A stretch of 64,000 nucleotides of DNA, taken from IMG/VR virus record IMGVR_UViG_3300026432_000013, positions 1 to 64,000 of that record. One strand, given 5' to 3'. Numbering within the stretch: position 1 is the first letter of the stretch; every line of letters begins with the position of its first letter. The position numbers and the translations under genes are program-made. Positions 3,059-20,510 of the stretch are shown here, one piece after another. The notes below the pieces were generated by a model. That model was not told the DNA's origin. It saw only the letters and a program-made list of their open reading frames with translations, and made no database searches. This DNA is from a virus (Duplodnaviria > Caudoviricetes).

Positions 3059-3299
3059 CTTTCATCAATCCTTTGCACTTAGCAGGTTGTACTAAATCAG
3101 GAGTAATATAACCATCATCAGTTATTAAGTATCTGCAAGTTGTTTCCTTGTCTTCTAGCTTAATTGTTCTGTATGGGGACTCCTCATATTGACCAATAGG
3201 TTTAAATCCTTGTGGGGTCTCCTTATACTCAGGAGGTTTAGGTGGGTCACAAGCCCCCAGTACCATTACACAACCTACCAACAACAATGTCTTCTTCAT
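3051..3299 (-). CDS. Putative lipoprotein
   Basis: MKK plus hydrophobic core plus lipobox LGAC. Confidence 0.7.
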   Translation of the reverse strand: MKKTLLLVGCVMVLGACDPPKPPEYKETPQGFKPIGQYEESPYRTIKLEDKETTCRYLITDDGYITPDLVQPAKCKGLMKGE

Positions 3300-3601
3300 A
3301 CATCAATCACACCTTTCTTAATGATTTCCGTGCTCTCTACTACATAATAGCTTGTCTCTGCTGTACTACGACGAGTAAACTTCATTTCCATACCAGATTC
3401 AGTACCTTTAACATGTACTGTTATCATGCCATCACGTCTATCTGACACATCCAGTACCTCGAACATCTCCCACTTTCTTAGCTTAATTAAGGGTATCCCA
3501 AACAGTTTAACCCACTTTCTTTCACCAGTAGTGCAGAACATGAAATACCCTGGTTTTAAGTGCCAATACAGGCAAGGGTGTGCACCCTTATACTTACTCA
3601 T
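3296..3601 (-). CDS. Hypothetical protein
   Basis: SD AAGGAGG; operon-packed. Confidence 0.75.
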   Translation of the reverse strand: MSKYKGAHPCLYWHLKPGYFMFCTTGERKWVKLFGIPLIKLRKWEMFEVLDVSDRRDGMITVHVKGTESGMEMKFTRRSTAETSYYVVESTEIIKKGVIDV

Positions 3602-3764: not shown

Positions 3765-4148
3765 TCATTTGGGTCTGATTGTTAGTACTACGTTCTCTAA
3801 AGCTCTAAAGTGGTCGCTACTGCCACCTTCCACACAGGTGTCTAAGCAACAATCCCCCTCTAGAACGTGCTTGCCATGAGCACTAACCAGCTTAAAGCTG
3901 ACTGTCTCAGCTTGCATAAAGCAGTCCATTACTGGAGTAGGGACGACCATTCTCTTAATCTTCAGGTTGCAAGTACCTCTGTATAGGGACGTTATCTGTG
4001 TCTCTATCTGGTGAGGAACTGCCACACCTGCTATCCATAGGTGAGTCTCTGGTGTTATCTCCGTGTCCACTCTGAATTCTGTCATGAATGATAAGTCTAC
4101 TTCTTGATTAGCCATTATATATTCATCTCCAAATAAGTTTTTTGCCAA
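3765..4148 (-). CDS. Hypothetical protein, tandem paralog array member
   Basis: HLWIAGVAVPH motif. Confidence 0.7.
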   Translation of the reverse strand: MAKNLFGDEYIMANQEVDLSFMTEFRVDTEITPETHLWIAGVAVPHQIETQITSLYRGTCNLKIKRMVVPTPVMDCFMQAETVSFKLVSAHGKHVLEGDCCLDTCVEGGSSDHFRALENVVLTIRPK

Positions 4149-5179: not shown

Positions 5180-5530
5180 CTAATATAAATGTAATGTAAA
5201 TGATACGTTGTTCAAAACCAACATATCTAGGTCTACCCATTTCTCAGTGTAGCTACTAATGGCTATTCTACCTTCAAACCTAGAAAAGTGCTTCTCAGGT
5301 TCTTCACCAGCATAAGGTGAAGGCTCATATCCCATGTCTACGTCTAGGCATCCATCAGCCCATACGTGATTAGTCAGTACTCCCATAAGCTCCTTTGGAA
5401 AGTACAATCGGTATACTTGGAAATACACTGTCTTATTACGCACTTGAATCTTCATGTCTCCAGGTATAACTATCGGAATGATTATACCGTTGATGTATAG
5501 GGTGTGCTCTGGTGGTTGAATCGTATGCAT
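5180..5530 (-). CDS. Hypothetical protein, tandem paralog array member
   Basis: TLYINGIIIP motif; SD GGGAGG. Confidence 0.8.
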   Translation of the reverse strand: MHTIQPPEHTLYINGIIIPIVIPGDMKIQVRNKTVYFQVYRLYFPKELMGVLTNHVWADGCLDVDMGYEPSPYAGEEPEKHFSRFEGRIAISSYTEKWVDLDMLVLNNVSFTLHLY

Positions 5531-6010: not shown

Positions 6011-7902
6011 CCTGGTAATCCCCTTCCTCCTCGCATTAACATAACCTGTTCATATGTGGATAGACCAGACATACTTGGTAGTTCGTCATCCTCATCAATG
6101 CCGTCTAAGTCCTCTAAGTCTTCATAGTTTAAATCCTCTTGCCCTGTGTCAGCTAGGTAGTCATCAACCTTGTTATCACGTATATTCTCTTGGTGCGCCT
6201 TGCCATCAAGGTTGATATGCTTCTCAGCTTCCCATGAGGACTTACTAGTGAGCATGAATGCCTTGCCTAAGTGGGCTTCACCCTTGAGGTCATGGAAGTT
6301 ATGAGGTGTTAGGTCATACCTGTAACCGTCATCCAGTTCAGCAAACTCCCAAGCATGCTCTAGCTCATCAACACTGTCATACCCACAGGCGTTCATTACT
6401 TTATTCGCATCCCAGCCGTTATTCTCTATGAAGCTCCATAGCTCTGTCCTAGCATTCTCTAGCTCGTAGGAGTCAGCAAAGTCAAAGCCTTTACTCTTGT
6501 CAGCCCAGGCATAAGCACCTATGGTAATGTTAGCATATATGCTTATCTTCACTTTGTTTCCCTTGGATATATGCTTCCACATTTGCTCAGTACGCTCATA
6601 TAGGTTGCCTGCAATACCTATGTTCTGGTAGTCATCCTCCACATCCAGCAGTTCATTATGAACAAGTAGTGTGCCATCCCAGTCACGCCCAACCTTACGT
6701 ATGACACGACCAGCACTGAAGCCATCCTTAGATTTAAGCTTTAGAGTCATATTCCAGTCCACATGGTATCTACCCTTCCCAAAGTCAGACACATCAGGTA
6801 TGACTGATTCTATATGAGCGGTATACTTGCCATCAGGAGAGCTGAACACATGCTCTATAGCAGAAGGAGATAGGTCACCAAACACATCCTTAGCTGACGC
6901 TATAGCAGCGTCTAGGCTACTGTTAAGCCCATGCTTTGTTGCACTCTCGTGTTGGTCATGCAGGTTGCGGTACGTGTCTTTGTCTTGTAACATGTCAGCT
7001 ACTGTATCCTCGTCCATGTTCTCTAACTCATCAAAATCTATATGCTTGGTGATTGCTTCCTTTTTGTTCTTCCCTTTCATCTCTTTCTCTGTTGCTTCCC
7101 TACGCCACTCCCACATATTAGCAATCTTCTCATCATGGTCATACTCACGTGGGTTGTAGTCCTCTGGTGTGCCATATGCAGGCTTCTCATCCTTAGGCTC
7201 TATCACATGCTCTAGTTTTGGCTCTTCTTTAGGTTGCTCTAGCTCTTGCTTATCTGGGTCTGGCTCCATACTCTTAACAGCATTGTACTGTGGGCTGTCC
7301 TCACCATATGTCATCTTGGTTAGCTCTTTGGCTCTCTCCATATCAGCACCATTCATGCCCATAGTAGCCCAACCAATGTCCATTGTAGAGCCTTCATCAA
7401 GCGTCTGTAAGAATGAGCTAGGCAGTTGTTCTGTTAGCTCACCCATACGCTCAGCTTCTAACTCTGTATGCCCAGCATCATTAATCATAGCAGTATGCTG
7501 GAAAAAGTCACCATCATGGATAGCTAAGTACCTGTTAGCACCATGCTTGATGTGGTTATCTATGAACTGTCCACCCATAGCTGACTCCTTAGTCTCAGGT
7601 AGATACACTGGTTGCTTGCTATGCAACTTGTCTTTCAGTGCTCTCTCACTATGAATCCCTTGTGCAGCTAGTGATTGCTTATACTGTGGGTGCTCATTGA
7701 TACCATGTCTCATTGCCTCTTTCAAGTGGTCTTCATTATGAATTGCCCTCATACCGTGACCAGTACTGGCATCCCATGGATTCACCCATTGCATACGGAA
7801 GAACGTCTTACCATTCTTCCCCTTAACCATTACACGCTTACGTGTCAGCTTACCAGTGTTGAGTGTGTGCATCCCTTTGCTTATGTTTATATACAGTTCC
7901 AT
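6007..7902 (-). CDS. Putative internal head protein with C-terminal GNAT acetyltransferase-like domain
   Basis: Start reassigned to MELYI just after the terL stop; GNAT motif A-like VEDDYQNIGIAGNLY and ANITIGAYAW..GF; acidic linker. Confidence 0.55.
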   Translation of the reverse strand: MELYINISKGMHTLNTGKLTRKRVMVKGKNGKTFFRMQWVNPWDASTGHGMRAIHNEDHLKEAMRHGINEHPQYKQSLAAQGIHSERALKDKLHSKQPVYLPETKESAMGGQFIDNHIKHGANRYLAIHDGDFFQHTAMINDAGHTELEAERMGELTEQLPSSFLQTLDEGSTMDIGWATMGMNGADMERAKELTKMTYGEDSPQYNAVKSMEPDPDKQELEQPKEEPKLEHVIEPKDEKPAYGTPEDYNPREYDHDEKIANMWEWRREATEKEMKGKNKKEAITKHIDFDELENMDEDTVADMLQDKDTYRNLHDQHESATKHGLNSSLDAAIASAKDVFGDLSPSAIEHVFSSPDGKYTAHIESVIPDVSDFGKGRYHVDWNMTLKLKSKDGFSAGRVIRKVGRDWDGTLLVHNELLDVEDDYQNIGIAGNLYERTEQMWKHISKGNKVKISIYANITIGAYAWADKSKGFDFADSYELENARTELWSFIENNGWDANKVMNACGYDSVDELEHAWEFAELDDGYRYDLTPHNFHDLKGEAHLGKAFMLTSKSSWEAEKHINLDGKAHQENIRDNKVDDYLADTGQEDLNYEDLEDLDGIDEDDELPSMSGLSTYEQVMLMRGGRGLPG

Positions 7903-9613: not shown

Positions 9614-10003
9614 CTACACCCCCTTCTTAGCCACCGACATATCGGCATCGTCATTAGCCTTGTTAAGCTCCTTCATCATATCAGCAAGTAAGCCACTGAT
9701 AGCAGGGTCTTCAAGGTCAATAAGTTCAGCCACCTTATTAATCTTAACCTCATCTAGGTCACTAAGCTGTTCAGTACGCTCAGTCACATCACCCATAAGA
9801 AGTAGGTCTAGCTTAATAATCTCAGCTAACTCTTTAGCGTTCCTAATCCCTTCTACCTTGCCTTGAGCCAAGTCTTCAAAATAGGTATCAATCAGGTTTC
9901 TGACTGTCATCCTATGCTCTTGCTTAGACTCCTCTACACTCTCAGGTAAGGTAGCTTTGCGGAAGGACGCTGATAAGCTTGATACCAGTGTTGGACGTTT
10001 CAT
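9614..10003 (-). CDS. Putative terminase small subunit
   Basis: Directly upstream of terL; helical GKVEGI..KLDLLLMGDVTER pattern recalled from SPO1/Twort-like TerS. Confidence 0.55.
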   Translation of the reverse strand: MKRPTLVSSLSASFRKATLPESVEESKQEHRMTVRNLIDTYFEDLAQGKVEGIRNAKELAEIIKLDLLLMGDVTERTEQLSDLDEVKINKVAELIDLEDPAISGLLADMMKELNKANDDADMSVAKKGV

Positions 10004-10031
10004 GGTATCCCTCCTTTCTTTGAAAAAATAC

Positions 10032-10060
10032 AAAAAAGACGTGTATCAATGATACACGCC
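10032..10060 (-). terminator. Intrinsic terminator
   Basis: GCGTGTATC/GATACACGT hairpin plus U-tract. Confidence 0.7.
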
Positions 10061-10079: not shown

Positions 10080-10625
10080 TTAGTCTCCATCTTCCTCATC
10101 ATCTTCTTCAGTATGCCCTAGCCAGAACATGCCTAGCTCCATGTCATCATCATACTCTACATCTAAATCCCCAAAGCCTGGTACAGAGTAAATGCCTGTT
10201 GGCTCAAGCCCTACCATCTCTAAGGTCTCTGGGTTGAACTTAACCATATCAGGGTCTACACCCTCTTTCACCTGATAGTCACGTACAGCCAACAACAATT
10301 GCTCGTTCATCTGTTTAATAGCTAGGTCTGGGTCTGTCTTATTGAGGTGATTACGAACAGCCTTATCATTAGCTTCCTTAGTACTCTTACCAAGGAAGTC
10401 ATCCATATACATTACCTGTACGTCTGGGTTATTCTTCAACAAGCCTGTTAGGAAGTCTCCAGTTGGAGTACCATCTCCACCACTAGCTTCAAACAATGTA
10501 CAAAGTTCTGGGTCATCGTAGTCCACTGGGATATTCTTAGCCTTCATCTCCTCGAATACATCAATGAACTTACACACCTTTTCATGTATGCAATCCTTAC
10601 AACTCTCTAACGTATAGCCTGCCAT
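10080..10625 (-). CDS. Hypothetical protein with Cys-rich N-terminus
   Basis: CKDCIHEKVC..C; acidic; SD AGGAG. Confidence 0.8.
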   Translation of the reverse strand: MAGYTLESCKDCIHEKVCKFIDVFEEMKAKNIPVDYDDPELCTLFEASGGDGTPTGDFLTGLLKNNPDVQVMYMDDFLGKSTKEANDKAVRNHLNKTDPDLAIKQMNEQLLLAVRDYQVKEGVDPDMVKFNPETLEMVGLEPTGIYSVPGFGDLDVEYDDDMELGMFWLGHTEEDDEEDGD

Positions 10626-10636
10626 TGTATCTCCTC

Positions 10637-11764
10637 CTAGTTCGTTTTAGATTTACGGAATAGCTTATTACGTTCAGCTTCATACTCTTTCTTATGACTA
10701 GCAAGAGTCTTGTCTGATAGGTCTAGAGATGCAGTAATCTCTTTCTTATGAGCCTTGATAGCCTCTAACTTAGCTAATAGTAATGCTTCCTCATCTTCTA
10801 GCAAGTCTAGGGATGACTTAGCACTCTCATGCTCATTAGCATTGTCTACCTGAAGTTGTTTGTAATACTCAAAGGCATTCTTCAACTCTTCTACCTGTTG
10901 TATTACAATGTTACGGTTGATATGCTTGGCAAAGCCAAAGTCCTCTTCATAGTAAGTAATGATTCTACCGTCAGCTTTACCCCAAAGGTAAACAAAGTTA
11001 TCAGCATCAAAGTAGTACGCAATACCTTCCTCATCTTCAAACAGTAGCTCTGTAGTAGGAGCATTGAACGCTTCTAGAATCATTGGCTTGATTTCAGATA
11101 CATTCTGTAGGAAATGCTTTTGAGCCTTCTCTAACGATGTAACATGTAGTAATAGCTTACGTTGTACGAACCTACCACCAGCATGAACTGTTACACTGTT
11201 ATCTTGCTTAGGCTCTATTACCTCTAGCTCTTTAGGTTCATATGCTACCACATGACCATCAGGGGTTACTATACCTTTAGGCTTCACCTCTTCAGCTTTA
11301 GGCTTCTCTATAGCATAGATAGGGTACAATCTAGTAACCTCTAGCTTTACCTCATCTTGCCACAAATGCTTACTGAAGGTATTCTCCATTGCTGGAAGAT
11401 ACATATCCAAATCAGCTCTAGTTAACTCTCTATCATTCCTACCATCTCTACGAAGTCTTAGGGTTTCACCTGGTATTAGACACTTTAACTCTAGAGCTGT
11501 CTCACCTCCAGGTCTAACATGACGTACAACGTACCAATCATCCCACAACCTCTCTACATTAGTAGCTAGCTTCATAGTTCTTAGAGCCTTATCCATTAAC
11601 TCAGCCATTTGCTCTTTAGCTTTAGTTAGCTCCCATTTAATAGCCTTCTCAGCCTCTTTGAATTCTGATACACCAGTTATCTCTTTCAACAACTCCTTAT
11701 GGCTACAGATTTCTAAGTATTTGCTTCTCAATTTTTGTACCAATTCGTTACTGAACACTCCCAT
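10637..11764 (-). CDS. Hypothetical coiled-coil protein
   Basis: Long ORF with heptad-rich termini; start reassigned to MGVFS. Confidence 0.8.
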   Translation of the reverse strand: MGVFSNELVQKLRSKYLEICSHKELLKEITGVSEFKEAEKAIKWELTKAKEQMAELMDKALRTMKLATNVERLWDDWYVVRHVRPGGETALELKCLIPGETLRLRRDGRNDRELTRADLDMYLPAMENTFSKHLWQDEVKLEVTRLYPIYAIEKPKAEEVKPKGIVTPDGHVVAYEPKELEVIEPKQDNSVTVHAGGRFVQRKLLLHVTSLEKAQKHFLQNVSEIKPMILEAFNAPTTELLFEDEEGIAYYFDADNFVYLWGKADGRIITYYEEDFGFAKHINRNIVIQQVEELKNAFEYYKQLQVDNANEHESAKSSLDLLEDEEALLLAKLEAIKAHKKEITASLDLSDKTLASHKKEYEAERNKLFRKSKTN

Positions 11765-11940
11765 GCTCACAACCCCCTTTGCTCTAAAAGAAGGGAACAA
11801 GTCCCAAATCTTCTCCTTCCTACAAAACTGTTAGAAGGTGCTCCATCATCCTATAACATGTCTCTTGCAGGTGGGACGTTCCTATGGCTCGCTAGCTTTT
11901 TTCTTTACGTACTTCGTACGTAATTTAAAGCTTTTAAGTA

Positions 11941-12020
11941 TTTATTTTTTAATTTAAAAAAGAGTATATTTAAAGTCTCTTTTAAGTATTTATATCTTTA
12001 AACTCTTATAAAAAATTTAA
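11941..12020 (+). repeat. AT-rich imperfect palindrome, copy 1 (inverted copy at 52900-52975)
   Basis: AAAAAGAGTATATTTAAAGTCTCTTTTAA versus AAAAAGAGTATTTAAAAGTTCTCTTTAA. Confidence 0.65.
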
Positions 12021-12213
12021 GTGCGAAAGCCTACACTACGTACGATGAAAACGAGACCATAGATGAAACAGAGAGAGAAAACATACAGTACCAAAATGTG
12101 TACAGTTGATATTTGTAGGAGTTGAAGGCACAAAAAGAAAAAGAGGAAGGAAGATGAACATAGGTAAAAGATGAACCTTATAGAGAATTAGCAGTTATTA
12201 TATCTATTTAGTA

Positions 12214-12273
12214 CGAAAGGTTGGTGGTGGGGTAATTGGTGGTGAAGAGAGTATCTGATATACGAACGTCGAT
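12214..12273 (+). repeat. ~100-bp polar repeat, 5' half copy
   Basis: CGAAAGGTTGGTGGTGGGGTAATTGGTGGTGAAGAG...CGAAC. Confidence 0.75.
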
Positions 12274-12285
12274 TACTATCTAAGA

Positions 12286-12600
12286 CTGCCCCACGGGTTC
12301 TGGGGACGCTAGGCGTCCTAGTGCTGCCCCACGGACTGCTGGAATGCCTAGGCACTAGTGCTGCCTCTGCTGTATCAGGCAGTGCATAAGCCCTGTCCTG
12401 CGCCACGCAAATGCTTGATGTTAATAGCCCGTGTATATCGTATTATTCGTATATTAAGAGTATGCTGCCCCAAGGATATCGTGTTATTGTGATATAGTCC
12501 GTATATATCGTATTATTCGTATATTGAGAGTATGTGTTTTAGTATATTGTGTTTTGTGTATATATTAAGTGTGTAATATGCATATATCGTATTATTAGTA
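12286..12600 (+). repeat. Short direct-repeat complex
   Basis: CTGCCCCA x3 (12286, 12324, 12465), CTAGTGCTGCC x2, TATATCGTATTATT x3 plus variants (12434, 12475, 12504, 12543, 12583). Confidence 0.8.
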
Positions 12601-12666
12601 TACTAAAAGGGAAATATATAAGAAAGAGAGAATATTAAAACATTATTATATATTTATATTAAAGAT

Positions 12667-12756
12667 AAGGGTTGTGGTGGGGGAACTGGTGGTGAAGCGA
12701 TACCTCGCTCTTCTTTATATGAAGCAAGATTCTAGCTAACCCTCATAGAAACGTAC
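12667..12756 (+). repeat. ~100-bp polar repeat copy
   Basis: GGGTTGTGGTGGGGGAACTGGTGGTGAAG...GATTCTAGCTAACCCTCATAGAAA. Confidence 0.75.
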
Positions 12757-12789
12757 AGGGCTAGGTTATAACCCCACTCTAGGTAGGGA

Positions 12790-12825
12790 AACGTCCTTGA
12801 CTTTTACCCCAGTTCGTGGTAAACT
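12790..12825 (+). promoter_or_regulatory. SigA-type early promoter, AACGTCC class
   Basis: AACGTCC-TTGACT-N17(CGTG)-TAAACT. Confidence 0.85.
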
Positions 12826-12921
12826 TAGTTCAAGAGGAAGAGGGCACCACACCAGAGCAACACACGGACGGTACCCACGACCTACACAAAAAACTCAAGA
12901 GCGAAAAGGAGACTGATTAAG

Positions 12922-13326
12922 ATGGCTAAAAAACAACAAAAGGTAGACGCAGTGAAACACGTAGAGGAAAACGGCTTCCCAGAGGTAGGGCACTTCACAG
13001 AGAAGAAAGACCTACAGAAGTTCTACAAACAACTTGATGATGTAGTACTAGGGGAGTGGATTGCTATCGAAGGACTAGAGTTCAAACCTTGTGAGGACAG
13101 TGAGGCTATCAACCGCATGCGGATGTGTATGGCTATCCTTTACCTACACTTCCCTAAACAACCTTCTGCTAAGAAGAAAGCTAAGTACGCAGACTACACT
13201 ATGGAACAGCTTATGAAGATGTGCCTAGACAACGACGTAGCAGTAGAGTACACTGAGAGTGAACAAATCATGCGTATGAGAACTATCATGGCGCTACGTG
13301 CAGCAGGTCACATCGAGAAAGCTTAG
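12922..13326 (+). CDS. Tandem helix-extended-helix-like nucleic acid-binding protein, paralog family
   Basis: Two copies of an RMRxxMA-ending helical unit; KKKAKY linker; four other members in window. Confidence 0.8.
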   Translation: MAKKQQKVDAVKHVEENGFPEVGHFTEKKDLQKFYKQLDDVVLGEWIAIEGLEFKPCEDSEAINRMRMCMAILYLHFPKQPSAKKKAKYADYTMEQLMKMCLDNDVAVEYTESEQIMRMRTIMALRAAGHIEKA

Positions 13327-13395
13327 GGTTGCTAGGCTACCCCCTACGGGGGGTATCCCATGGAGCTAGTAAGCTACCTAGACTAAAGGAGTGGT
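13327..13395 (+). ncRNA. Structured intercistronic RNA element, copy A
   Basis: CTAG, UACG hairpin, TGGA hairpin with bulged A, CTAG, SD; covaries across copies. Confidence 0.75.
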
Positions 13396-13399
13396 TAGT

Positions 13400-13570
13400 G
13401 TGAACAACTTTTGGAAAGCTGTAAAGTCCCTAGAGGGTAAGACTGTGAGTAAGGTGTTAGAGGACGAGGTGAGTGGGGGTATCTGTATCAAGTGTACAGA
13501 CGGCACTAGTGTGTCAGTATCTGTGGATGCAGAGGAGCTAGACCTACAAGCAGTAGTGAACGAGGACTGA
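13400..13570 (+). CDS. 56-aa hypothetical protein (GTG start, not in ORF track)
   Basis: SD AAAGGAGTGG; VNNFWKAVKSLEGKTV... Confidence 0.7.
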   Translation: MNNFWKAVKSLEGKTVSKVLEDEVSGGICIKCTDGTSVSVSVDAEELDLQAVVNED

Positions 13571-13574
13571 GTGT

Positions 13575-13641
13575 CTGCTAGTGCACACCCTACGGGGTGT
13601 GTATCCTGGAGCTACTTAGCTACCTAGACAAAAGGAGTGGT
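13575..13641 (+). ncRNA. Structured intercistronic RNA element, copy B
   Basis: Same architecture as copy A. Confidence 0.75.
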
Positions 13642-13966
13642 AAGTGTGGGTAAAACTAAAACGTACGTACCTGAGTGGGTTATTCTGGAGGAGAACTCAC
13701 CTAGTGAGATGCACTATTTCCGTATGGTAGGCAGTGATGCACGTGAGTACGAGGGCACTGAGAGTATCTGGGTGGTTATCCTAGACCAAGTGCAGGAGGG
13801 AGAGTTCTGTGCCTCTATCGTGGCAGTGAACGACTCGTTAGTGGGCAGTGTAGTACCCCTGATGAGTACTGGAGTAGTGAGTGAGCAGAGTGCTAGGAAC
13901 AACCTAGAGTACTTGATGCGGTACGCTCGTAAGGGTATCGTGAGTGTAGGAGGTGGTCTACTATGA
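13637..13966 (+). CDS. Hypothetical protein
   Basis: SD AAAGGAGTGG; true start likely GTG at 13646. Confidence 0.75.
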   Translation: MVSVGKTKTYVPEWVILEENSPSEMHYFRMVGSDAREYEGTESIWVVILDQVQEGEFCASIVAVNDSLVGSVVPLMSTGVVSEQSARNNLEYLMRYARKGIVSVGGGLL

Positions 13967-14118
13967 AGACCGCAAGAACGATTAAGCGTGTGCTAGTGGT
14001 AACGGGAGCGTGTACGCTCCTTTACCTAGCATGTAACCTAGTGTATACTGCATGCACATGGACGTATCCAGGAGTAGACAAGCAGTTAGAAGCATATCAA
14101 GACACCTACAGTAAGTAG
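13963..14118 (+). CDS. 51-aa membrane-anchored peptide (not in ORF track)
   Basis: ATGA overlap; SD AGGAGG; TM segment; followed by a terminator. Confidence 0.65.
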   Translation: MKTARTIKRVLVVTGACTLLYLACNLVYTACTWTYPGVDKQLEAYQDTYSK

Positions 14119-14130
14119 GTGTCTATTTTT
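14101..14130 (+). terminator. Intrinsic terminator
   Basis: GACACCTAC/GTAGGTGTC hairpin plus T-tract. Confidence 0.75.
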
Positions 14131-14357
14131 GTGCGTTTGTGGGTGTAGGGCATCTTTTAGCCCGTTTTGGGGCTTTTGTGAGTGCAAAGGCTTTCGGGTT
14201 CAAACCTGCTTCAGAGAGAAATTTGGGTAGAAAACTAGTAGCTCAAAAATCCTGTTTGGTGTGTTGTTCGGTTGTGAATTTCGTTTCAAAATCAGTCAGA
14301 ACCATTTGTATATGAAAGAGAGAGAAGAGAGAAATTTGAGTATAAAAGATATATGAG

Positions 14358-14460
14358 CGAAGGGTTGTTGTTGGGTATATTGGTGGGGAGAAAGTAATTG
14401 ATAAGCGAACTCCGATTGCTTTATTTGAAAGGATTTTCTAGGTAACCCCCATAGAAAGCC
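14358..14460 (+). repeat. ~100-bp polar repeat copy
   Basis: CGAAGGGTTGTTGTTGGG...CGAAC..GATTGCTTTA...GATTTTCTAGGTAACCCCCATAGAAA. Confidence 0.8.
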
Positions 14461-14497
14461 CAACAGGGCTAAGGATACCGTCCATCCTATACCCGTG

Positions 14498-14533
14498 AAC
14501 GTCCTTGAGTATTCCGCCCACCCGTGATATAAT
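14498..14533 (+). promoter_or_regulatory. SigA-type early promoter, AACGTCC class
   Basis: AACGTCC-TTGAGT-N17(CGTG)-TATAAT. Confidence 0.85.
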
Positions 14534-14601
14534 TTATTCAAGGGGGGGCGGGGTTACCGCCCACTACCAAAATCGCCCACGAGGGCTAGGAGGAATATGA
14601 T

Positions 14602-15009
14602 ATGAGTAAAAAAGTGAATATCAACGGTAAAGTAGACGCTATGGAATGGATTACTACGAATAATGGGTATCCTGAGGTAGGTATCTTCGAGGATAAGAAA
14701 TGGCTACAAAAATTCTATAAGCAACTTCCTGTAGAGGTATTAGAGGATTGGTGTAGCGTAGAAGGATTGGAGTATAAGCCTAATGATAATGAACAGATTC
14801 ATAGAATGAGAGTATGTATGGCTATCCTATACTTCCACTATCCTAAGGAGCCATCTACTAAGAAGAAAGCTAAATATGCAGACTATACTATGGAGGCACT
14901 TATGACACTATGCCTAGATAATGATATAGCTGTAGAATATACAGATAGTGAGCAGATTATGAGAATGCGTACTATTATGGCACTACGTGCAGCTGGTAAG
15001 ATTCAGTAA
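14602..15009 (+). CDS. Tandem helix-extended-helix-like protein, paralog family
   Basis: Close paralog of 12922..13326 (e.g. KKKAKYADYTME...SEQIMRMRTIMALRAAG). Confidence 0.85.
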   Translation: MSKKVNINGKVDAMEWITTNNGYPEVGIFEDKKWLQKFYKQLPVEVLEDWCSVEGLEYKPNDNEQIHRMRVCMAILYFHYPKEPSTKKKAKYADYTMEALMTLCLDNDIAVEYTDSEQIMRMRTIMALRAAGKIQ

Positions 15010-15078
15010 GTTGCTAGTACTCCCTCTACGGAGGGGGTATCATGGAACCTATTGGTTACCTAGTATAGAAGGAGTGGT
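15010..15078 (+). ncRNA. Structured intercistronic RNA element, copy C
   Basis: Compensatory AACC/GGTT in hairpin 2. Confidence 0.75.
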
Positions 15079-15082
15079 AAGT

Positions 15083-15331
15083 ATGTGTGAAGTATTTGTA
15101 CCTATTAGTGAGTCCGATAGAGAGTGGCTACGTGAGTATCTGCGTGAGGTGTGTGTGATACATGATACCGTTACTGAGTACCGTGTATTATATACTCCAG
15201 GTGTAGGCACTGAGATAGAGTTGTATGGGTGTGTAGATGCAGAATCCTTCTACGTGAGTGATATAGACGGTGTAGAGTATTGGAGTAGATATCTGCGTGA
15301 GAAGGGCTTCCCTAGATATATGTATGAGTAA
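15083..15331 (+). CDS. Hypothetical protein
   Basis: Start reassigned to MCEVF after SD AAGGAGTGG. Confidence 0.75.
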   Translation: MCEVFVPISESDREWLREYLREVCVIHDTVTEYRVLYTPGVGTEIELYGCVDAESFYVSDIDGVEYWSRYLREKGFPRYMYE

Positions 15332-15337
15332 GTGTGT

Positions 15338-15369
15338 AACCCTAGTACCGTGTGTACTAGGGTTTTTCT
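15338..15369 (+). terminator. Intrinsic terminator
   Basis: AACCCTAGTAC/GTACTAGGGTT hairpin plus T-tract. Confidence 0.75.
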
Positions 15370-15495
15370 ATGCCCTTTTCTGCTTCTATGTGAGTTGTAT
15401 ATCAACTCTGTAAGTCGATTTCTCTCAAAGGTGAAAGGGTTCAAAGATTGAAGCAGGAGAAATTCGAGTAAGTGAGTGTTAGAACTTTCAATAGG

Positions 15496-15599
15496 CGAAA
15501 GGTTGGTGGAGGGGATGAATGGTGGGAAGAGTTTCTGATGAGCGAACCGAATTGCTTTAATAGGAAGTGAGTTTGTAGGTACTCCCCATAGAAACGAGC
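15496..15599 (+). repeat. ~100-bp polar repeat copy
   Basis: CGAAAGGTTGGTGGAGGGG...CGAAC..ATTGCTTTAA...GGTACTCCCCATAGAAA. Confidence 0.8.
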
Positions 15600-15643
15600 A
15601 TAAGAACACCCTACATACGTTTGTGTATGTAGGGTGTATATAG

Positions 15644-15865
15644 TCATAAGTACTTATCATCCTCTGTATACCAGCCAGTATCAAAGTGGTAGCCTACCCG
15701 TTTGGGTATGGTGTGGTTAGCTATCTCCTCTAGAGTGAGTGCTACTATAGCATCTATATCCTCCTGGCTACAGTCTGATGCGTATATATTCTCGTTCTCT
15801 ATAGCCTTGTTTATCTCTGCTACTACCTGCTCCTGTATAAGCTTTCTTAGGGTATCCTGCTTCAT
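15644..15865 (-). CDS. Hypothetical protein
   Basis: Probable paralog of 15867..16097. Confidence 0.7.
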   Translation of the reverse strand: MKQDTLRKLIQEQVVAEINKAIENENIYASDCSQEDIDAIVALTLEEIANHTIPKRVGYHFDTGWYTEDDKYL

Positions 15866-15866
15866 A

Positions 15867-16097
15867 CTAGCAGTCCTCCTCTATATCGAATCTATTATTT
15901 ACATTAGGTGTAATGATAGCTTCATGCAAGTCTCCTAGGATATTATCTGCTATAGCATTAATGTCACTATAGGTATAACCTACAGTGTCGTATCCTATCT
16001 TTTCCATACTAGCATTATGCGCTTCTATATTTAGCTTAATCTCATTACATAGCCATGTTCTTACTACTGTTGGTATATCTTTATATGGTTGACTCAT
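15867..16097 (-). CDS. Hypothetical protein
   Basis: SD AAAAGGAG; EI..IE..N...DI.AI...L pattern. Confidence 0.75.
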   Translation of the reverse strand: MSQPYKDIPTVVRTWLCNEIKLNIEAHNASMEKIGYDTVGYTYSDINAIADNILGDLHEAIITPNVNNRFDIEEDC

Positions 16098-16102
16098 ATT
16101 AA

Positions 16103-16169
16103 CTCTCTCCTTTTATCTGTGAGTATAGGTATTCCAGAGATAGCCCTGCGTACAAGGCTACCTAGCAAT
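16103..16169 (-). ncRNA. Structured intercistronic RNA element, degenerate copy F
   Basis: TTGCTAG, TACG hairpin, TGGA, SD; hairpin 2 eroded. Confidence 0.55.
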
Positions 16170-16171
16170 CT

Positions 16172-16468
16172 CTATACGTGAGTAGTGCATCCTAGGAACA
16201 CTTTAGTTGGTAAGTACAGGATAGTATTAGGGTCGTCTACATATACAAAGCGTACCCAGACACTGTCCCTAGGGTTAGTATACTCTACTTGAGCGAATAG
16301 TGCTTGGAAGTCCTCTGGTACCTCTCTGTACCTAGAGATGCCTAGCACCTTAACCGCTCCCTGCTCCATATCTTGTAGCCCATTAGCGAATGTAGGGTAT
16401 AAATTCCACCAGCTATCTGGCTTTACCTCTATAGTGATGTGTGCATCTGCATTACCTAATTCGTGCAT
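16172..16468 (-). CDS. Hypothetical protein
   Basis: WVxFxYxD...YxP..F shared with 17641..17958. Confidence 0.75.
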   Translation of the reverse strand: MHELGNADAHITIEVKPDSWWNLYPTFANGLQDMEQGAVKVLGISRYREVPEDFQALFAQVEYTNPRDSVWVRFVYVDDPNTILYLPTKVFLGCTTHV

Positions 16469-16508
16469 ATTAACCTCTCCCTTATATGTAATACTAGGGG
16501 CTATGCCC

Positions 16509-16883
16509 CTAGCTGATATAGTATACCTGAACCTCTACTCCGTTGGCTAGGGTACGCTGGTAGCAGCCTATGTGGACTACTACACAGTCCTCTAGCCCAC
16601 AGTGGCACTCTATCTGCTTCTCTAGGTGCTCCATACTAACGCACCCTGTCATCCAGTTCTCCTCTACCTCACTATGGTCTAGAGTATCTGCATAGTGGTG
16701 CAGGTAGTGTGCCGTGGTTAGGATAGTATCCTCATCTCTATTTTTACTATCCAGAATATGGTACTCTCTGTCATACTGGATAGTAGTTACCTCTGCTTCT
16801 AGCCCATCGTTGAGCCTAATAGCCTTTACTGCCTCATCTACGTGTCCTACAGGAATATCGTGGCTACCGTATACAATAATCAT
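16509..16883 (-). CDS. Hypothetical protein
   Basis: Operon-packed ORF. Confidence 0.75.
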   Translation of the reverse strand: MIIVYGSHDIPVGHVDEAVKAIRLNDGLEAEVTTIQYDREYHILDSKNRDEDTILTTAHYLHHYADTLDHSEVEENWMTGCVSMEHLEKQIECHCGLEDCVVVHIGCYQRTLANGVEVQVYYIS

Positions 16884-17068
16884 TGCATATCCTCCCCTAT
16901 CATAATGTCTTCCTTACAGCTAGGGCAGATATGGATAGTACCAGGCTCCTGTAGAGCGATACTAGATATCATATCCATTGTATACGTTTCCCCTAGGAAC
17001 GCCTCAGCAGTTGCCTTATCCCAATCCTCTACACTACTCTCTACTCCACAGTGTACACATTCTACCAT
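16880..17068 (-). CDS. Small zinc-ribbon protein
   Basis: CVHC...CPSC. Confidence 0.75.
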   Translation of the reverse strand: MVECVHCGVESSVEDWDKATAEAFLGETYTMDMISSIALQEPGTIHICPSCKEDIMIGEDMQ

Positions 17069-17118
17069 TACTATCTCCTCCTAGTCTCTAGTAGGAGCAC
17101 CCCTGCTCCCTTGAAGAA

Positions 17119-17154
17119 ATTATACCACGGAGCAGGGGAAAGTTCAAGGACGTT
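17119..17154 (-). promoter_or_regulatory. SigA-type early promoter, AACGTCC class
   Basis: AACGTCC-TTGAAC-N17(CGTG)-TATAAT. Confidence 0.85.
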
Positions 17155-17167
17155 CCCCTACCCTAGA

Positions 17168-17566
17168 CTATCTAGGATTTCTCACATAAGGGTTATCTAT
17201 AAACAATAGGTAGATATCTTTATCATTCTGCTTACGTATGATAGCTCTATTATCATCTCCCATACGTTCTACCTTATTAACTTCCCATACACTATACTCC
17301 TCATACAGACGCTTACCAGAGATATCCTTACCCTGCCATACATCCTCTTGTAGCATAGCCCCTGTAGGTATCACTACGTTTATAAGGTCTTCTACCCAGT
17401 CGTCTGGATATGTCTCAGGTAGAGCCAATAGGTTAAACTGCTCCCCATCCTCTACAAACTTAGTTAGACCCATACCCATAGCACGCTTTACAAACTCTGC
17501 TACCTCTGTAGCTGTAGCACGCTCGCTATATAAGTACGCTACTGGTGTCATTTTCTTACTTAACAT
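17168..17566 (-). CDS. Hypothetical protein
   Basis: SD AAAGGAGTGG; start reassigned to MLSKK. Confidence 0.75.
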   Translation of the reverse strand: MLSKKMTPVAYLYSERATATEVAEFVKRAMGMGLTKFVEDGEQFNLLALPETYPDDWVEDLINVVIPTGAMLQEDVWQGKDISGKRLYEEYSVWEVNKVERMGDDNRAIIRKQNDKDIYLLFIDNPYVRNPR

Positions 17567-17570
17567 ATAT

Positions 17571-17640
17571 ACCACTCCTTTTTATCTAGGTAGCTATTTA
17601 GCTCCATAAGGAAGGCGATAGTATCGCCTGCCCTAGCAAC
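17571..17640 (-). ncRNA. Structured intercistronic RNA element, copy D
   Basis: Same architecture; different loop in hairpin 1. Confidence 0.7.
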
Positions 17641-17958
17641 CTATAGCTGACTCATATGGTCTGCAAACTCGTCTACAGGGAAGTACTCATAGTGGTCATC
17701 GTCCTCACGCTGCTTAGGGTCTGTATACTGGAACGCTACCCACTGCCAGTTTTGTACATCACTAGGGTCGTCTTGGAACTGCTCCCATGCATACAGGTCG
17801 ACATACTTAGGTAGCTGAGATGTAGGTACAATCTTCATAATCTCTACCTCACCACTATCTAGCCCTAGGTATCCGTAGCTAGTATTGATACGGCACACCT
17901 TACCTATCTTAATAGTTCTTTCTACATTCACCGTAATAGATGTTAATCTAGTACCCAT
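17641..17958 (-). CDS. Hypothetical protein
   Basis: Start reassigned to MGTRL after SD AAAGGAG. Confidence 0.75.
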   Translation of the reverse strand: MGTRLTSITVNVERTIKIGKVCRINTSYGYLGLDSGEVEIMKIVPTSQLPKYVDLYAWEQFQDDPSDVQNWQWVAFQYTDPKQREDDDHYEYFPVDEFADHMSQL

Positions 17959-18018
17959 GTCTATCTCTCCTTTTATCCTCGATATTCGTTTGGTGGGTTG
18001 CCCCGCCTCCGTACTCAA

Positions 18019-18054
18019 ATTATCCCACGGACGGAGGAAAATCTCAAGGACGTT
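18019..18054 (-). promoter_or_regulatory. SigA-type early promoter, AACGTCC class
   Basis: AACGTCC-TTGAGA-N17(CGTG)-GATAAT. Confidence 0.8.
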
Positions 18055-18101
18055 GGCTACTGGTATCCTAGTTACGGGGTGTCCCTATAGCGTGGGAGTA
18101 T

Positions 18102-18140
18102 TTTATTTGAAGTGATTTTCTACCTACCCTCCATAGAGAT
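18102..18140 (+). repeat. Polar repeat, 3' half copy
   Basis: TTTATTTGAAGTGATTTTCTACCTACCCTCCATAGA. Confidence 0.6.
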
Positions 18141-18176
18141 GTCTAGGCATAAAAATAGCCCCTATTAGGGGCGGTA

Positions 18177-18518
18177 TTAGTCTAGGTTATAGGTACCAGG
18201 TCTACAGAAGTAGTACCATGCTTCATAGTAATAGGATAGGTTATCATGGGTACGATTCATTAAGGCTAGCCCTGTAAAGTGATGCTGATAGAAGTCTAGC
18301 CACTCACTATGGTAGTGCTCTAGGCAGTCTAGTAATATCTTAGCGCTATCTTTAGTTAGCATATCCTGTACATTAAACTCATCTAGTATATTAGTACACT
18401 CAGCCATAGTAATAGAGTGACTACAGTGCTCACGCTTAATATCATTGATACGCTCTTGTATAAATCCAATAGTCCATTCCATTACTTCTTCTCTAGTATA
18501 TAATTCTTTCTTAGCCAT
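18177..18518 (-). CDS. Hypothetical protein
   Basis: SD AAGGGAG; terminator downstream at 18151-18172. Confidence 0.75.
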   Translation of the reverse strand: MAKKELYTREEVMEWTIGFIQERINDIKREHCSHSITMAECTNILDEFNVQDMLTKDSAKILLDCLEHYHSEWLDFYQHHFTGLALMNRTHDNLSYYYEAWYYFCRPGTYNLD

Positions 18519-18538
18519 TTATATCCGCTCCCTTAGTA

Positions 18539-18742
18539 TTAGAATTCACTACTATGCTTATATCCATTACCTCTTTGTATTACCTTGTATGCGCTCTTAT
18601 CATATATGTTATCCCCTGTATAGGTAGCTAATGCGTAATCAGTGAGTGCCATATTCTTTATAAACCGTCTCATAGCAGACATAGACTGGTATGTCTTATG
18701 ACCCTTTAACCCATCTTGTGAGTACTCTACGTTTAGTGGCAT
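18539..18742 (-). CDS. Hypothetical protein
   Basis: Operon-packed ORF. Confidence 0.7.
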   Translation of the reverse strand: MPLNVEYSQDGLKGHKTYQSMSAMRRFIKNMALTDYALATYTGDNIYDKSAYKVIQRGNGYKHSSEF

Positions 18743-19063
18743 CTATGCCACCACCAGTACGTGTAGGAACTCTACATCAATATATTGTTCCTTAGACACT
18801 GTTACCGTAATACCATGAGTACACACTATGCAGGATGTAGTAGTAAGTGGCAGGTCATCTAGAGCAGGTATCTCATTCATATGATCAGCATGTGCCCACA
18901 TAGTAGTGGCATGCTCATTAGATATTGAAGCAGGTGCTAGGTACATATCACCCTCTATATTGTGCCACTCTGCTTCCTGTATACCTAGCCTTAGGGCTAG
19001 TTCGTCCATTACCTCAGTAGGTATAAGCGTGTTATTAACAAGTACCTTAGTCATATTATGCAC
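18743..19063 (-). CDS. Hypothetical protein
   Basis: Operon-packed ORF. Confidence 0.7.
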   Translation of the reverse strand: MHNMTKVLVNNTLIPTEVMDELALRLGIQEAEWHNIEGDMYLAPASISNEHATTMWAHADHMNEIPALDDLPLTTTSCIVCTHGITVTVSKEQYIDVEFLHVLVVA

Positions 19064-19331
19064 CCCACTTTATGATATGTTTGATAGTACCTGTAGTCTG
19101 GTTATCTATTTCCGCTGCATATACTCCAGTACCAAAGTCTAAGCCTTGGTCTACCTGCTCCTTAACAGTGCTCCAGCCTGTAGCAGTCTTAGTAACCTTA
19201 TTCCACACACCATCGAAAGTATTAGGGCACTTAGGGTCATCGCTATCTACCAACCTACCCTCTTTATCTACAATCACACTATCTCCATCAGTGAATAGTA
19301 TACAGTAATCTTGGCTATACATATTAACCAC
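19056..19331 (-). CDS. Hypothetical protein
   Basis: SD AAAGGAGTGG; true start likely near 19322. Confidence 0.75.
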   Translation of the reverse strand: MVNMYSQDYCILFTDGDSVIVDKEGRLVDSDDPKCPNTFDGVWNKVTKTATGWSTVKEQVDQGLDFGTGVYAAEIDNQTTGTIKHIIKWGA

Positions 19332-19396
19332 TCCTTTTATCTAGGTAACATATAATGTTCCAGTGCTACAGCCCCCGTAGGGGCTATGCTAGCAAC
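19327..19396 (-). ncRNA. Structured intercistronic RNA element, copy E
   Basis: Compensatory AACAT/ATGTT in hairpin 2; cUACGg loop. Confidence 0.75.
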
Positions 19397-19398
19397 AC

Positions 19399-20229
19399 CT
19401 ATGCTAAGATACCAGCTTGCTTTAGAGCCATGATAGTGTACATGCGTAGGATGTTCTCATTACCCTTACCATCTCTTACCTCGATATCGTTATCGATAGC
19501 CATCTCTAGTAGCTCTTCTGTAGTAAGGTGACCATACTTAGCTTTCTTCTTACTACCAGACTTCTTAGGGAAGTGGTGGTTACTGATAGCCATGCACGCT
19601 CTCATACGATTGATACCAGGGTTATCGTTAGTCTTCCACTCTAAGCCTTCAATATCAGCCCACTCTGTAATCTGCTCCATAGATAGGCGCTTGTAGAACT
19701 TCTTAATATCCTCTACAGATTCAAAGTGTCCTACTTCAGGGTACTCAATCTCCTGACCTGCTAGGTCTTCCTTAACCTTAGGAGCTTTAGCCTTAGGCTC
19801 TGGCTGTTTTAGTTTCTTAGCCATAGCTCTCCAGTCAGCTACCTCTTCTTTAGGCTCTTCTTCTACAGGAGCAGGTACTTCCTCTTCAGTATGTACCTCT
19901 GGCTCAGTACCATCTCCTAAGTCTTCCTCTTCTAGTTCTGGCTCAATACCGTCACTACCATCGTTTACTCCTACCTCCTGCTCTTCCTCTACCTGCTCTA
20001 GCTTACCGCTCTCTGGAGCGTCTCCTACCATAACGATTTCTAGCTTACCTTCCTCTACTGCTGCTTCTACTAGAGTGTCGTTACCTGCTTCTTCTACTAC
20101 ATCCTCGATAACCTCTACGCCTTCGTACTCACCAGCTAAAATACCTTTCTTAGTAACCTTTACTCCTAAGATTGCTCCTACTTCCTTAACTGTTGTTACT
20201 GTTTCCTCACCGTTTACTAGATATGCCAT
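19399..20229 (-). CDS. Long member of the tandem helix-extended-helix-like family (N-domain, acidic linker, two repeats)
   Basis: Start reassigned to MAYLV after SD AAAGGAG; C-terminus matches 12922/14602; N-terminus resembles 62531..63223. Confidence 0.85.
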   Translation of the reverse strand: MAYLVNGEETVTTVKEVGAILGVKVTKKGILAGEYEGVEVIEDVVEEAGNDTLVEAAVEEGKLEIVMVGDAPESGKLEQVEEEQEVGVNDGSDGIEPELEEEDLGDGTEPEVHTEEEVPAPVEEEPKEEVADWRAMAKKLKQPEPKAKAPKVKEDLAGQEIEYPEVGHFESVEDIKKFYKRLSMEQITEWADIEGLEWKTNDNPGINRMRACMAISNHHFPKKSGSKKKAKYGHLTTEELLEMAIDNDIEVRDGKGNENILRMYTIMALKQAGILA

Positions 20230-20298
20230 AATTATCGTCTCCTTTATTCTCTGATAGTCGGAAGGTGCTCTGCTGTAGTGCCCCTCTCGCTTGAACAA

Positions 20299-20334
20299 AT
20301 TATGTCATGACTGTTCGAGGAAGTCAAGGACGTT
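20299..20334 (-). promoter_or_regulatory. SigA-type early promoter, AACGTCC class
   Basis: AACGTCC-TTGACT-N17(CATG)-CATAAT. Confidence 0.8.
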
Positions 20335-20470
20335 TTGTTACTCTAGCCTACTCTACTTGCTGACCCTATACGGATTTGGTGTGCTACCAATGTAACCTAC
20401 TTAGCCCCACCAAGAAAAAATAAAAAAGGAAGAGATGCGGTTTCGCTATCTCTTCCCTAGTTCTTTTCCC

Positions 20471-20510
20471 TTATTGGAATTGATTTTCTACCTAACCCCC
20501 ATAGAAACCC
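20471..20510 (+). repeat. Polar repeat, 3' half copy
   Basis: TTATTGGAATTGATTTTCTACCTAACCCCCATAGAAA. Confidence 0.65.

Follow-up and report, generated by a model that had tools for sequence, protein, structure and literature searches.

Intercistronic RNA elements in the early operons of a CP-51-like phage probably belong to the SP82/SPO1 family of host RNase III sites

Background

The RNase III sites in the early RNA of the Bacillus phages SP82 and SPO1 are the closest described counterparts of the elements analyzed here. SP82 is reportedly the phage in which sites for the RNase III of Bacillus subtilis (Bs-RNase III) were first mapped, by Panganiban and Whiteley in 1983, and the corresponding work on SPO1 is said to be that of Stewart et al. 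in 1998. The SP82 targets are formed by a stem of about two helical turns with an internal loop, and are cut only once, in the downstream strand (PMC1935012). A segment of the SP82 RNA is also known as a 5' RNA stabilizer (Hue, Cohen and Bechhofer 1995, as cited in PMC7509114 and PMC11805744), which prolongs the life of the downstream RNA and depends on its ribosome binding site. Ribosomes bound to a strong Shine-Dalgarno (SD) sequence block RNase J1 (PMC5737220). Other RNase III signals, namely R1.1 and its relatives, are found in the early transcripts of phage T7 (PMC8708148, PMC1935012), and the Bs-RNase III targets that were tested are not cut by the Escherichia coli enzyme (PMC8708148). 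Here we analyze six copies of an RNA element in the first 64,000 nucleotides of the viral record IMGVR_UViG_3300026432_000013 (Caudoviricetes), hereafter the window. The copies are probably intercistronic processing signals in the early polycistronic mRNAs of a phage like CP-51, Shanette and JL, and share their origin with the sites at which host RNase III cuts SP82 and SPO1 RNA.

Results

Six copies of the element in the window

The source of the window is a relative of the Bacillus phages Shanette, JL and CP-51 (Herelleviridae, Siminovitchvirus), with approximately 88% identity across 12.8-20.4 kb. In Shanette and JL, the stretch homologous to the region of the copies sits in the annotated 16-kb terminal repeat and is densely packed with small genes of unassigned function. 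A preliminary description, based on the letters of the sequence alone, had reported here six copies of a motif with two hairpins, all on the sense strand between a stop codon and an SD. All six are confirmed where they had been placed. A covariance model built from these copies with the SD left out (R1) returned exactly copies A to F in the 64 kb, with expectation (E) values between 4e-24 and 3e-7 and the next match at E of about 1, and the element is found nowhere else in the window. Simple patterns are also overrepresented: TGGAR-N6-16-TACCTAG occurs five times compared to 0.48 expected by chance, and TTGCTAG-N20-45-TGGA six times compared to 1.33. Each copy begins 0-4 nt past the upstream stop codon or overlaps it, and GGAG follows 8-9 nt beyond its end. 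The copies are listed below, together with the long hairpin that each is predicted to form with its upstream flank (MFE, minimum free energy; z, folding z-score).

Copy A: start 13327; long hairpin 13320..13383, + strand; MFE and centroid structures both the long hairpin, -28.4 kcal/mol, z -1.7
Copy B: start 13573; long hairpin 13567..13629, + strand; z -3.8; preceded by the stop codon 13568-13570
Copy C: start 15009; long hairpin 15003..15065, + strand; z -4.0; stop codon 15007-15009 within the 5' arm
Copy D: start 16170; long hairpin 16123..16177, - strand; z -4.6; lower stem GUAUAG:CUAUAC
Copy E: start 17641; long hairpin 17584..17648, - strand; z -3.2; lower stem AGCUAU:AUAGCU
Copy F: start 19397; long hairpin 19339..19406, - strand; z -3.7; lower stem UAGCAUA:UAUGUUA, middle stem GUGUU:AACAU

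In copy A, the 5' arm (AGCUUA-G-GGUU) takes in the stop codon at 13324-13326, the two hairpins lie inside, and the 3' end is CCUAGAC. The first of these hairpins (hairpin 1) had been described with a TACG loop, which is present as cUACGg in four copies and as gUACGc in copy D, but is replaced by a loop of 3 nt in copy E. It is followed by UAUC/CAUGG and not by a U-tract. The compensatory pairs reported for hairpin 2 are present as AGCU/AGCU, AACC/GGUU and AACAU/AUGUU, each with a bulged A, except in copy D, which has no hairpin 2. The D form is kept in at least six phages, where it retains a perfect long hairpin.

Reciprocal homology to the SPO1 and SP82 sites

R1 matches six places in the host-takeover module of SPO1 (E between 4e-13 and 9e-8). 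In the GenBank record AF031901.1, this module carries miscellaneous features named 'RNAse III site RS-A' to 'RS-F', and R1 overlaps four of them:

RS-A: annotated at 11043-11095; R1 match 11032-11089
RS-B: annotated at 10750-10799; R1 match 10737-10795
RS-C: annotated at 10123-10170; R1 match 10113-10167
RS-D: annotated at 5415-5473; R1 match 5423-5479

We also built the reciprocal covariance model (R2) from ten Okubovirus copies only (SPO1, SP82G and phiBsKO1-1), with no sequence from the window. Its top six matches in the window are copies A to F, with E values from 7e-15 to 8e-6 and copy D at 0.054, and the next match has an E value of 0.48. Since the two models match reciprocally, the motif is the SPO1/SP82 RNase III site family. 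The preliminary description had set the motif apart from these sites, which it regarded as single hairpins; this distinction does not hold, as the models link the copies to the family of RS-A to RS-D and the copies themselves are predicted to form a single long hairpin, the kind of site that has been published, when the flank is included. Rfam 15 gave no match at the gathering score in the window and in six related loci, including SPO1, CP-51 and EalM-132. Between 12000 and 20500 no Rfam family, ribozymes included, matched even at E <= 1. The idea of an undescribed family of cis-regulatory RNA is therefore right with regard to Rfam, where the family is missing, but not with regard to the RNA class, which is already known through the SPO1/SP82 sites and is extended by these copies.

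The likeness covers sequence, structure and position. The blocks GGUUGCUAG, a variable GC-rich stem, (C)AUGGAGC and GCUAC are found in both groups, as is a long hairpin with an internal loop. Both occupy early-operon gene junctions or leaders in the terminal redundancy, with five to seven sites per genome. The differences concern the host, which belongs to the B. cereus group for the window phage and is B. subtilis for SPO1 and SP82, the top of hairpin 2, which is mostly AGCU:AGCU in the window and AGCC:GGCU in SPO1/SP82, and the invariant CCUAGA behind the element, which is restricted to the lineage of the window. Moreover, the SD directly follows the window copies, whereas SPO1 RS-B and RS-D interpose an extra hairpin. 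RS-D and RS-B (AF031901.1, 5470-5515 on the + strand and 10715-10750 on the - strand, respectively) share a AUGAGUAAGUCC block and this third small hairpin before the SD (CCUAGG-UUGA-CCUAGG and CCUGUGA-UC-UCACAGG), both of which the window copies lack. Apart from the UUGUUAG block, SPO1 RS-F has just a hairpin and a U-rich tail.

Predicted folds and covariation

When folded with 14 nt of upstream flank, all six window copies adopt a single irregular hairpin as both MFE and centroid structure, with z-scores from -1.7 to -4.6. Without the flank, z is only -0.02 to -2.4. We folded in their upstream context 15 family copies, composed of the six window copies, the six SPO1 sites and three copies from relatives, and the long hairpin, of 20-27 bp, is the MFE structure in 14 of them. 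At its base, a lower stem (X:X') joins the final codons and the stop codon of the upstream open reading frame to the loop and the 3' strand of hairpin 2. Above it come the middle stem GGUU:A-R-Y-Y, a single C:G pair and an internal loop that is conserved (UAG opposite AUG). Hairpin 1 forms the upper stem, which is GC-rich and in most cases ends in a UACG loop.

The lower stem covaries. Across 16 paralogous types, cognate X:X' duplexes have a mean energy of -5.34 kcal/mol, compared to -3.36 +/- 0.43 for permuted partners, and none of 20000 permutations reaches the cognate mean. Compensatory sets include CAUACUA:UAGUAUG, UAUGUA:UACAUA, AUGGU:ACCAU, GUAUAG:CUAUAC and UCAGC:GCUGA. In 43 distinct family members, hairpin 1 is paired at 97.4% with double changes at eight of nine pairs; the preliminary description had remarked that its stems differ in sequence and stay paired. 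Hairpin 2 is paired at 98.7% with double changes at three of six pairs, and a seventh-pair variant, AGCG:CGCU, is found in the leader of SPO1 gene 44. G-U pairs are frequent in the stems, and the structure therefore belongs to the sense-strand RNA rather than to DNA.

If the 5' arm is blocked in folding, all copies but D refold as hairpin 1 plus hairpin 2. The long and the two-hairpin folds differ by about 0-2 kcal/mol in the four copies with a valid comparison. According to these predictions, the two hairpins reported previously are a real alternative fold, taken when the 5' arm is unavailable. The possible three-way junction fares differently. Its outer CUAG:CUAG stem is indeed invariant in the Siminovitchvirus copies, but it is specific to this lineage, never varies and finds nothing to pair with on the 3' side of SPO1-type copies, and the junction is therefore unsupported. 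Of 41 sequences, 10 leave the pair C6:G75 open.

Position within early operons

All six copies lie inside operons bounded by promoter-like and terminator-like signals, mostly behind the first gene. A terminator scan found terminator-like hairpins at the operon ends, at 14100, 15338 and 18172. The copies are located between cistrons, approximately 400-900 nt from the promoter-like sites, and none is in a leader. Every long intercistronic gap (about 75 nt) is occupied by a copy, and the remaining junctions overlap or measure at most approximately 40 nt. The five early promoter-like sites are conserved, with consensus AACGTCCTTGAc, a 17-nt spacer with a TG-extended -10, and tATAATTT:

12790..12826, + strand: promoter-like site of the operon of copies A and B; AACGTCCTTGAC-N17-TAAACT, TG-extended
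14498..14535, + strand: promoter-like site of the operon of copy C, same conserved family
17117..17154, - strand: promoter-like site of the operon of copy D, same conserved family
18017..18054, - strand: promoter-like site of the operon of copy E, same conserved family
20297..20334, - strand: promoter-like site of the operon of copy F, same conserved family

TTGCTA was considered as a promoter element and discarded, as every TATNNN lies too far from it and the early promoters form a separate conserved family. The SDs and starts downstream of the copies, and the assigned genes upstream of them, are:

13387..13402, + strand: SD AGGAGUGGU and GTG start (13400) of the gene downstream of copy A
13633..13648, + strand: SD and GTG start (13646) downstream of copy B
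15070..15085, + strand: SD and ATG start (15083) downstream of copy C
16095..16110, - strand: SD GGAGAGAG and ATG start (16097) downstream of copy D
17564..17579, - strand: SD and ATG start (17566) downstream of copy E
19320..19335, - strand: SD and ATG start (19322) downstream of copy F
12922..13326, + strand: homolog of SPO1 gp51 (58% identity), upstream of copy A
14602-15009, + strand: gp51-family paralog, upstream of copy C
19399-20298, - strand: gp51-family paralog, similar to gp44/E3, upstream of copy F

The three gp51/gp44 (E3) paralogs are the first genes of their early operons, and a putative processing hairpin lies directly behind each of them.

Distribution of the family

In complete genomes, R1 detects six copies in Shanette, seven in CP-51 and five in JL, only in the early region, and the sites carry no annotation in these three records. 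SP82G has the same six matches as SPO1, again only in the early region, and phiBsKO1-1 has five. A strict pattern search of IMG/VR found the element in SPO1 and CP-51-like contigs only; a looser pattern was discarded, as its matches were mostly due to chance. A scan of bacterial genomes returned 29 scattered matches, regarded as due to chance, none of which was confirmed by the covariance model, and therefore no host copy or prophage reservoir is seen at that stringency. More distant Spounavirinae (Exiguobacterium phage EalM-132, Nachito and S4-1) have no match. In vB_EalM-132 (6660-6740 and 9855-10050), homologs of gp51 and gp44 are retained, and intrinsic terminators and new promoters, with no processing hairpin, are found at the equivalent junctions.

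Discussion

We propose that, in the precursor RNA, the last codons of the upstream gene, its stop codon and GGUU would make the 5' arm of an RNase III substrate of 20-27 bp. In analogy to the sites of SP82 and T7, a single cut by the host enzyme would fall in the 3' strand, close to the conserved internal loop. This would leave an upstream mRNA that terminates in the stable upper hairpin (hairpin 1, often capped by cUACGg), while the downstream mRNA, with its 5' monophosphate, would refold its first nucleotides as hairpin 2, 8-9 nt before a very strong SD. Together, this hairpin and the ribosome bound to the SD would guard the downstream mRNA against 5'-to-3' decay.

As the 5' arm includes the stop codon, we speculate that a ribosome terminating there should keep the substrate from folding for a short time. 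We put forward, tentatively, that the RNA has two states and that both are under selection: a ribosome-gated long hairpin for RNase III and, after the cut, hairpin 2 with an SD-bound ribosome against RNase J1. If this were so, the long hairpin would be melted by the terminating ribosome and RNase III would cut only once the ribosome had gone. GGUU would serve as a wobble-tolerant universal partner of A-R-Y-Y, and the 3' strand of hairpin 2 would follow the A-R-Y-Y strand by Watson-Crick changes. We found no description of such a substrate-fold/product-fold design for the SP82/SPO1 sites in a search that covered literature other than the primary SP82 and SPO1 papers.

In the SP82 5' RNA stabilizer, a polypurine sequence that resembles an SD lies behind an RNase III site segment, and the window copies are likewise followed by AAAGGAG 8-9 nt past the element. 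The stabilizer function was mapped in SP82 only, and for the window copies it is a candidate role by analogy. Stabilization in SP82 is reportedly independent of cleavage. The signals of the T7 R1.1 type are also irregular hairpins with internal loops between early cistrons, and a single cut on their 3' side gives an upstream mRNA that ends in a hairpin, as may occur at the window copies. They differ in having no sequence similarity to the copies and in being targets of another host enzyme. No second covarying product hairpin is known for the T7 signals.

Other functions could be imagined for the same RNA. A stand-alone cis-regulatory element with two hairpins or a three-way junction could act independently of RNase III, either as a translational insulator or enhancer that frees the SD or as a binding site for a phage or host protein. 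Such a role would agree with the covariation of hairpin 2, which occurs in six flavors (AGCU, AACC, AGCC, AGUC, AACAU and AGCG), with the nearly isoenergetic two-hairpin fold, and with the invariant CCUAGA and the constant distance to the SD, which suggest a function in translation. We nonetheless consider it unlikely, as copy D has no hairpin 2 and is still kept with its long hairpin, the outer CUAG/CUAG stem is partnerless in SPO1-type copies, and the family is annotated in SPO1 as RNase III sites. Also, predicted SD accessibility does not change consistently from precursor to product: the probability that GGAG is unpaired increases in D, E and F, decreases in A and B, and stays the same in C. 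On this basis we rejected, as a general mechanism, the sequestration of the SD by the 3' strand of hairpin 2 and its release upon processing.

Control of transcription is very unlikely, be it by intrinsic termination or attenuation at hairpin 1 or by a put-like action of the element, in which the RNA would modify RNA polymerase so that it reads through. In its favor, the stem of hairpin 1 is stable and GC-rich with a UNCG-type loop, and one SPO1 family member overlaps the annotated 'terminator TL2.7'. However, hairpin 1 is followed by UAUCCCAUGG or similar sequences instead of a U-tract, the scan that calls the operon ends calls none of the six copies, and the covarying lower stem, formed with the upstream coding sequence, has no part in models of this kind. 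The resemblance to HK022 put, raised in the preliminary description, consists of two adjacent sense-strand hairpins that form only in the alternative fold of the copies. The dominant predicted fold is instead one long hairpin, and the copies lie between cistrons and not in promoter-proximal leaders. Nothing speaks in favor of a put-like antiterminator or of an action on RNA polymerase. Least probable of all is a small self-cleaving ribozyme that would cut the polycistronic RNA without any host enzyme. Its positional logic, at the gene junctions of early operons, would equal that of an RNase III site, but the Rfam searches of the window and of six related loci gave no ribozyme match, the conserved blocks are unlike any known catalytic core, and a long regular helix is typical of the substrate of a protein nuclease.

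Several observations weigh against the RNase III site reading that we favor. In SPO1, the annotated sites RS-E (4019-4062) and RS-F (3254-3311) have no match to the model, and two of the six model matches, both full family members, are not annotated as RNase III sites:

AF031901.1 10533-10588, - strand: in the gap between genes 58 and 57, overlapping 'terminator TL2.7'
AF031901.1 4114-4172, + strand: in the leader of gene 44, downstream of PE5

The middle stem is barely better paired than column shuffles (93.2% and 90.7%, respectively), and RNAalifold, run on the plain flank-extended alignment, recovers hairpins 1 and 2 and misses the lower stem. The latter result is due to the register of X:X', which varies between copies, and we applied instead the permutation test of cognate against non-cognate partners. 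The model also leaves the invariant 3' CCUAGA of the Siminovitchvirus lineage without explanation. We take the experimentally mapped SP82 sites to be the same motif on the basis of the SPO1 GenBank annotation, and we infer cleavage, the exact cut position and the protective roles by analogy. Family identity, position and covariation are shown by the analysis, and both folds are predicted.

The SP82/SPO1 family of RNase III sites reaches, with these copies, from phages of B. subtilis (Okubovirus) to phages of the B. cereus group (Siminovitchvirus). The same blocks are retained across hosts, which fits reports that Bacillus RNase III has a narrow specificity that depends in part on sequence. The roughly 40 distinct natural variants that we aligned could seed an Rfam family and help to define the recognition determinants of the enzyme. 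What is added to the known family is modest, namely the fold that includes the flank, its covariation and the two-state proposal. If the latter is true, it would represent a compact design rule by which an operon is cut into separately stabilized mRNAs in Gram-positive hosts.

Repeats in the neighboring spacers

Other repeats are found near the copies. A 45-nt direct repeat (core GATTTTCTAGGTAACCCCCATAGAAA) is present five times in the spacers of the early operons, always in + strand orientation regardless of the direction of the flanking genes:

12710-12754, + strand: 45-nt repeat
14416-14460, + strand: 45-nt repeat
15553-15597, + strand: 45-nt repeat
18098-18142, + strand: 45-nt repeat
20466-20510, + strand: 45-nt repeat

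A large gene-free stretch (11800-12900) separates the divergent late and early regions. It hosts four copies of a 41-nt unit (ATATCGTATTATTCGTATAT core) at 12424-12613, which could be protein-binding iterons, and two copies of a 52-nt G-rich repeat (GGTGGTGGGG...GGTGGTGAAG), at 12199-12250 and 12649-12700.

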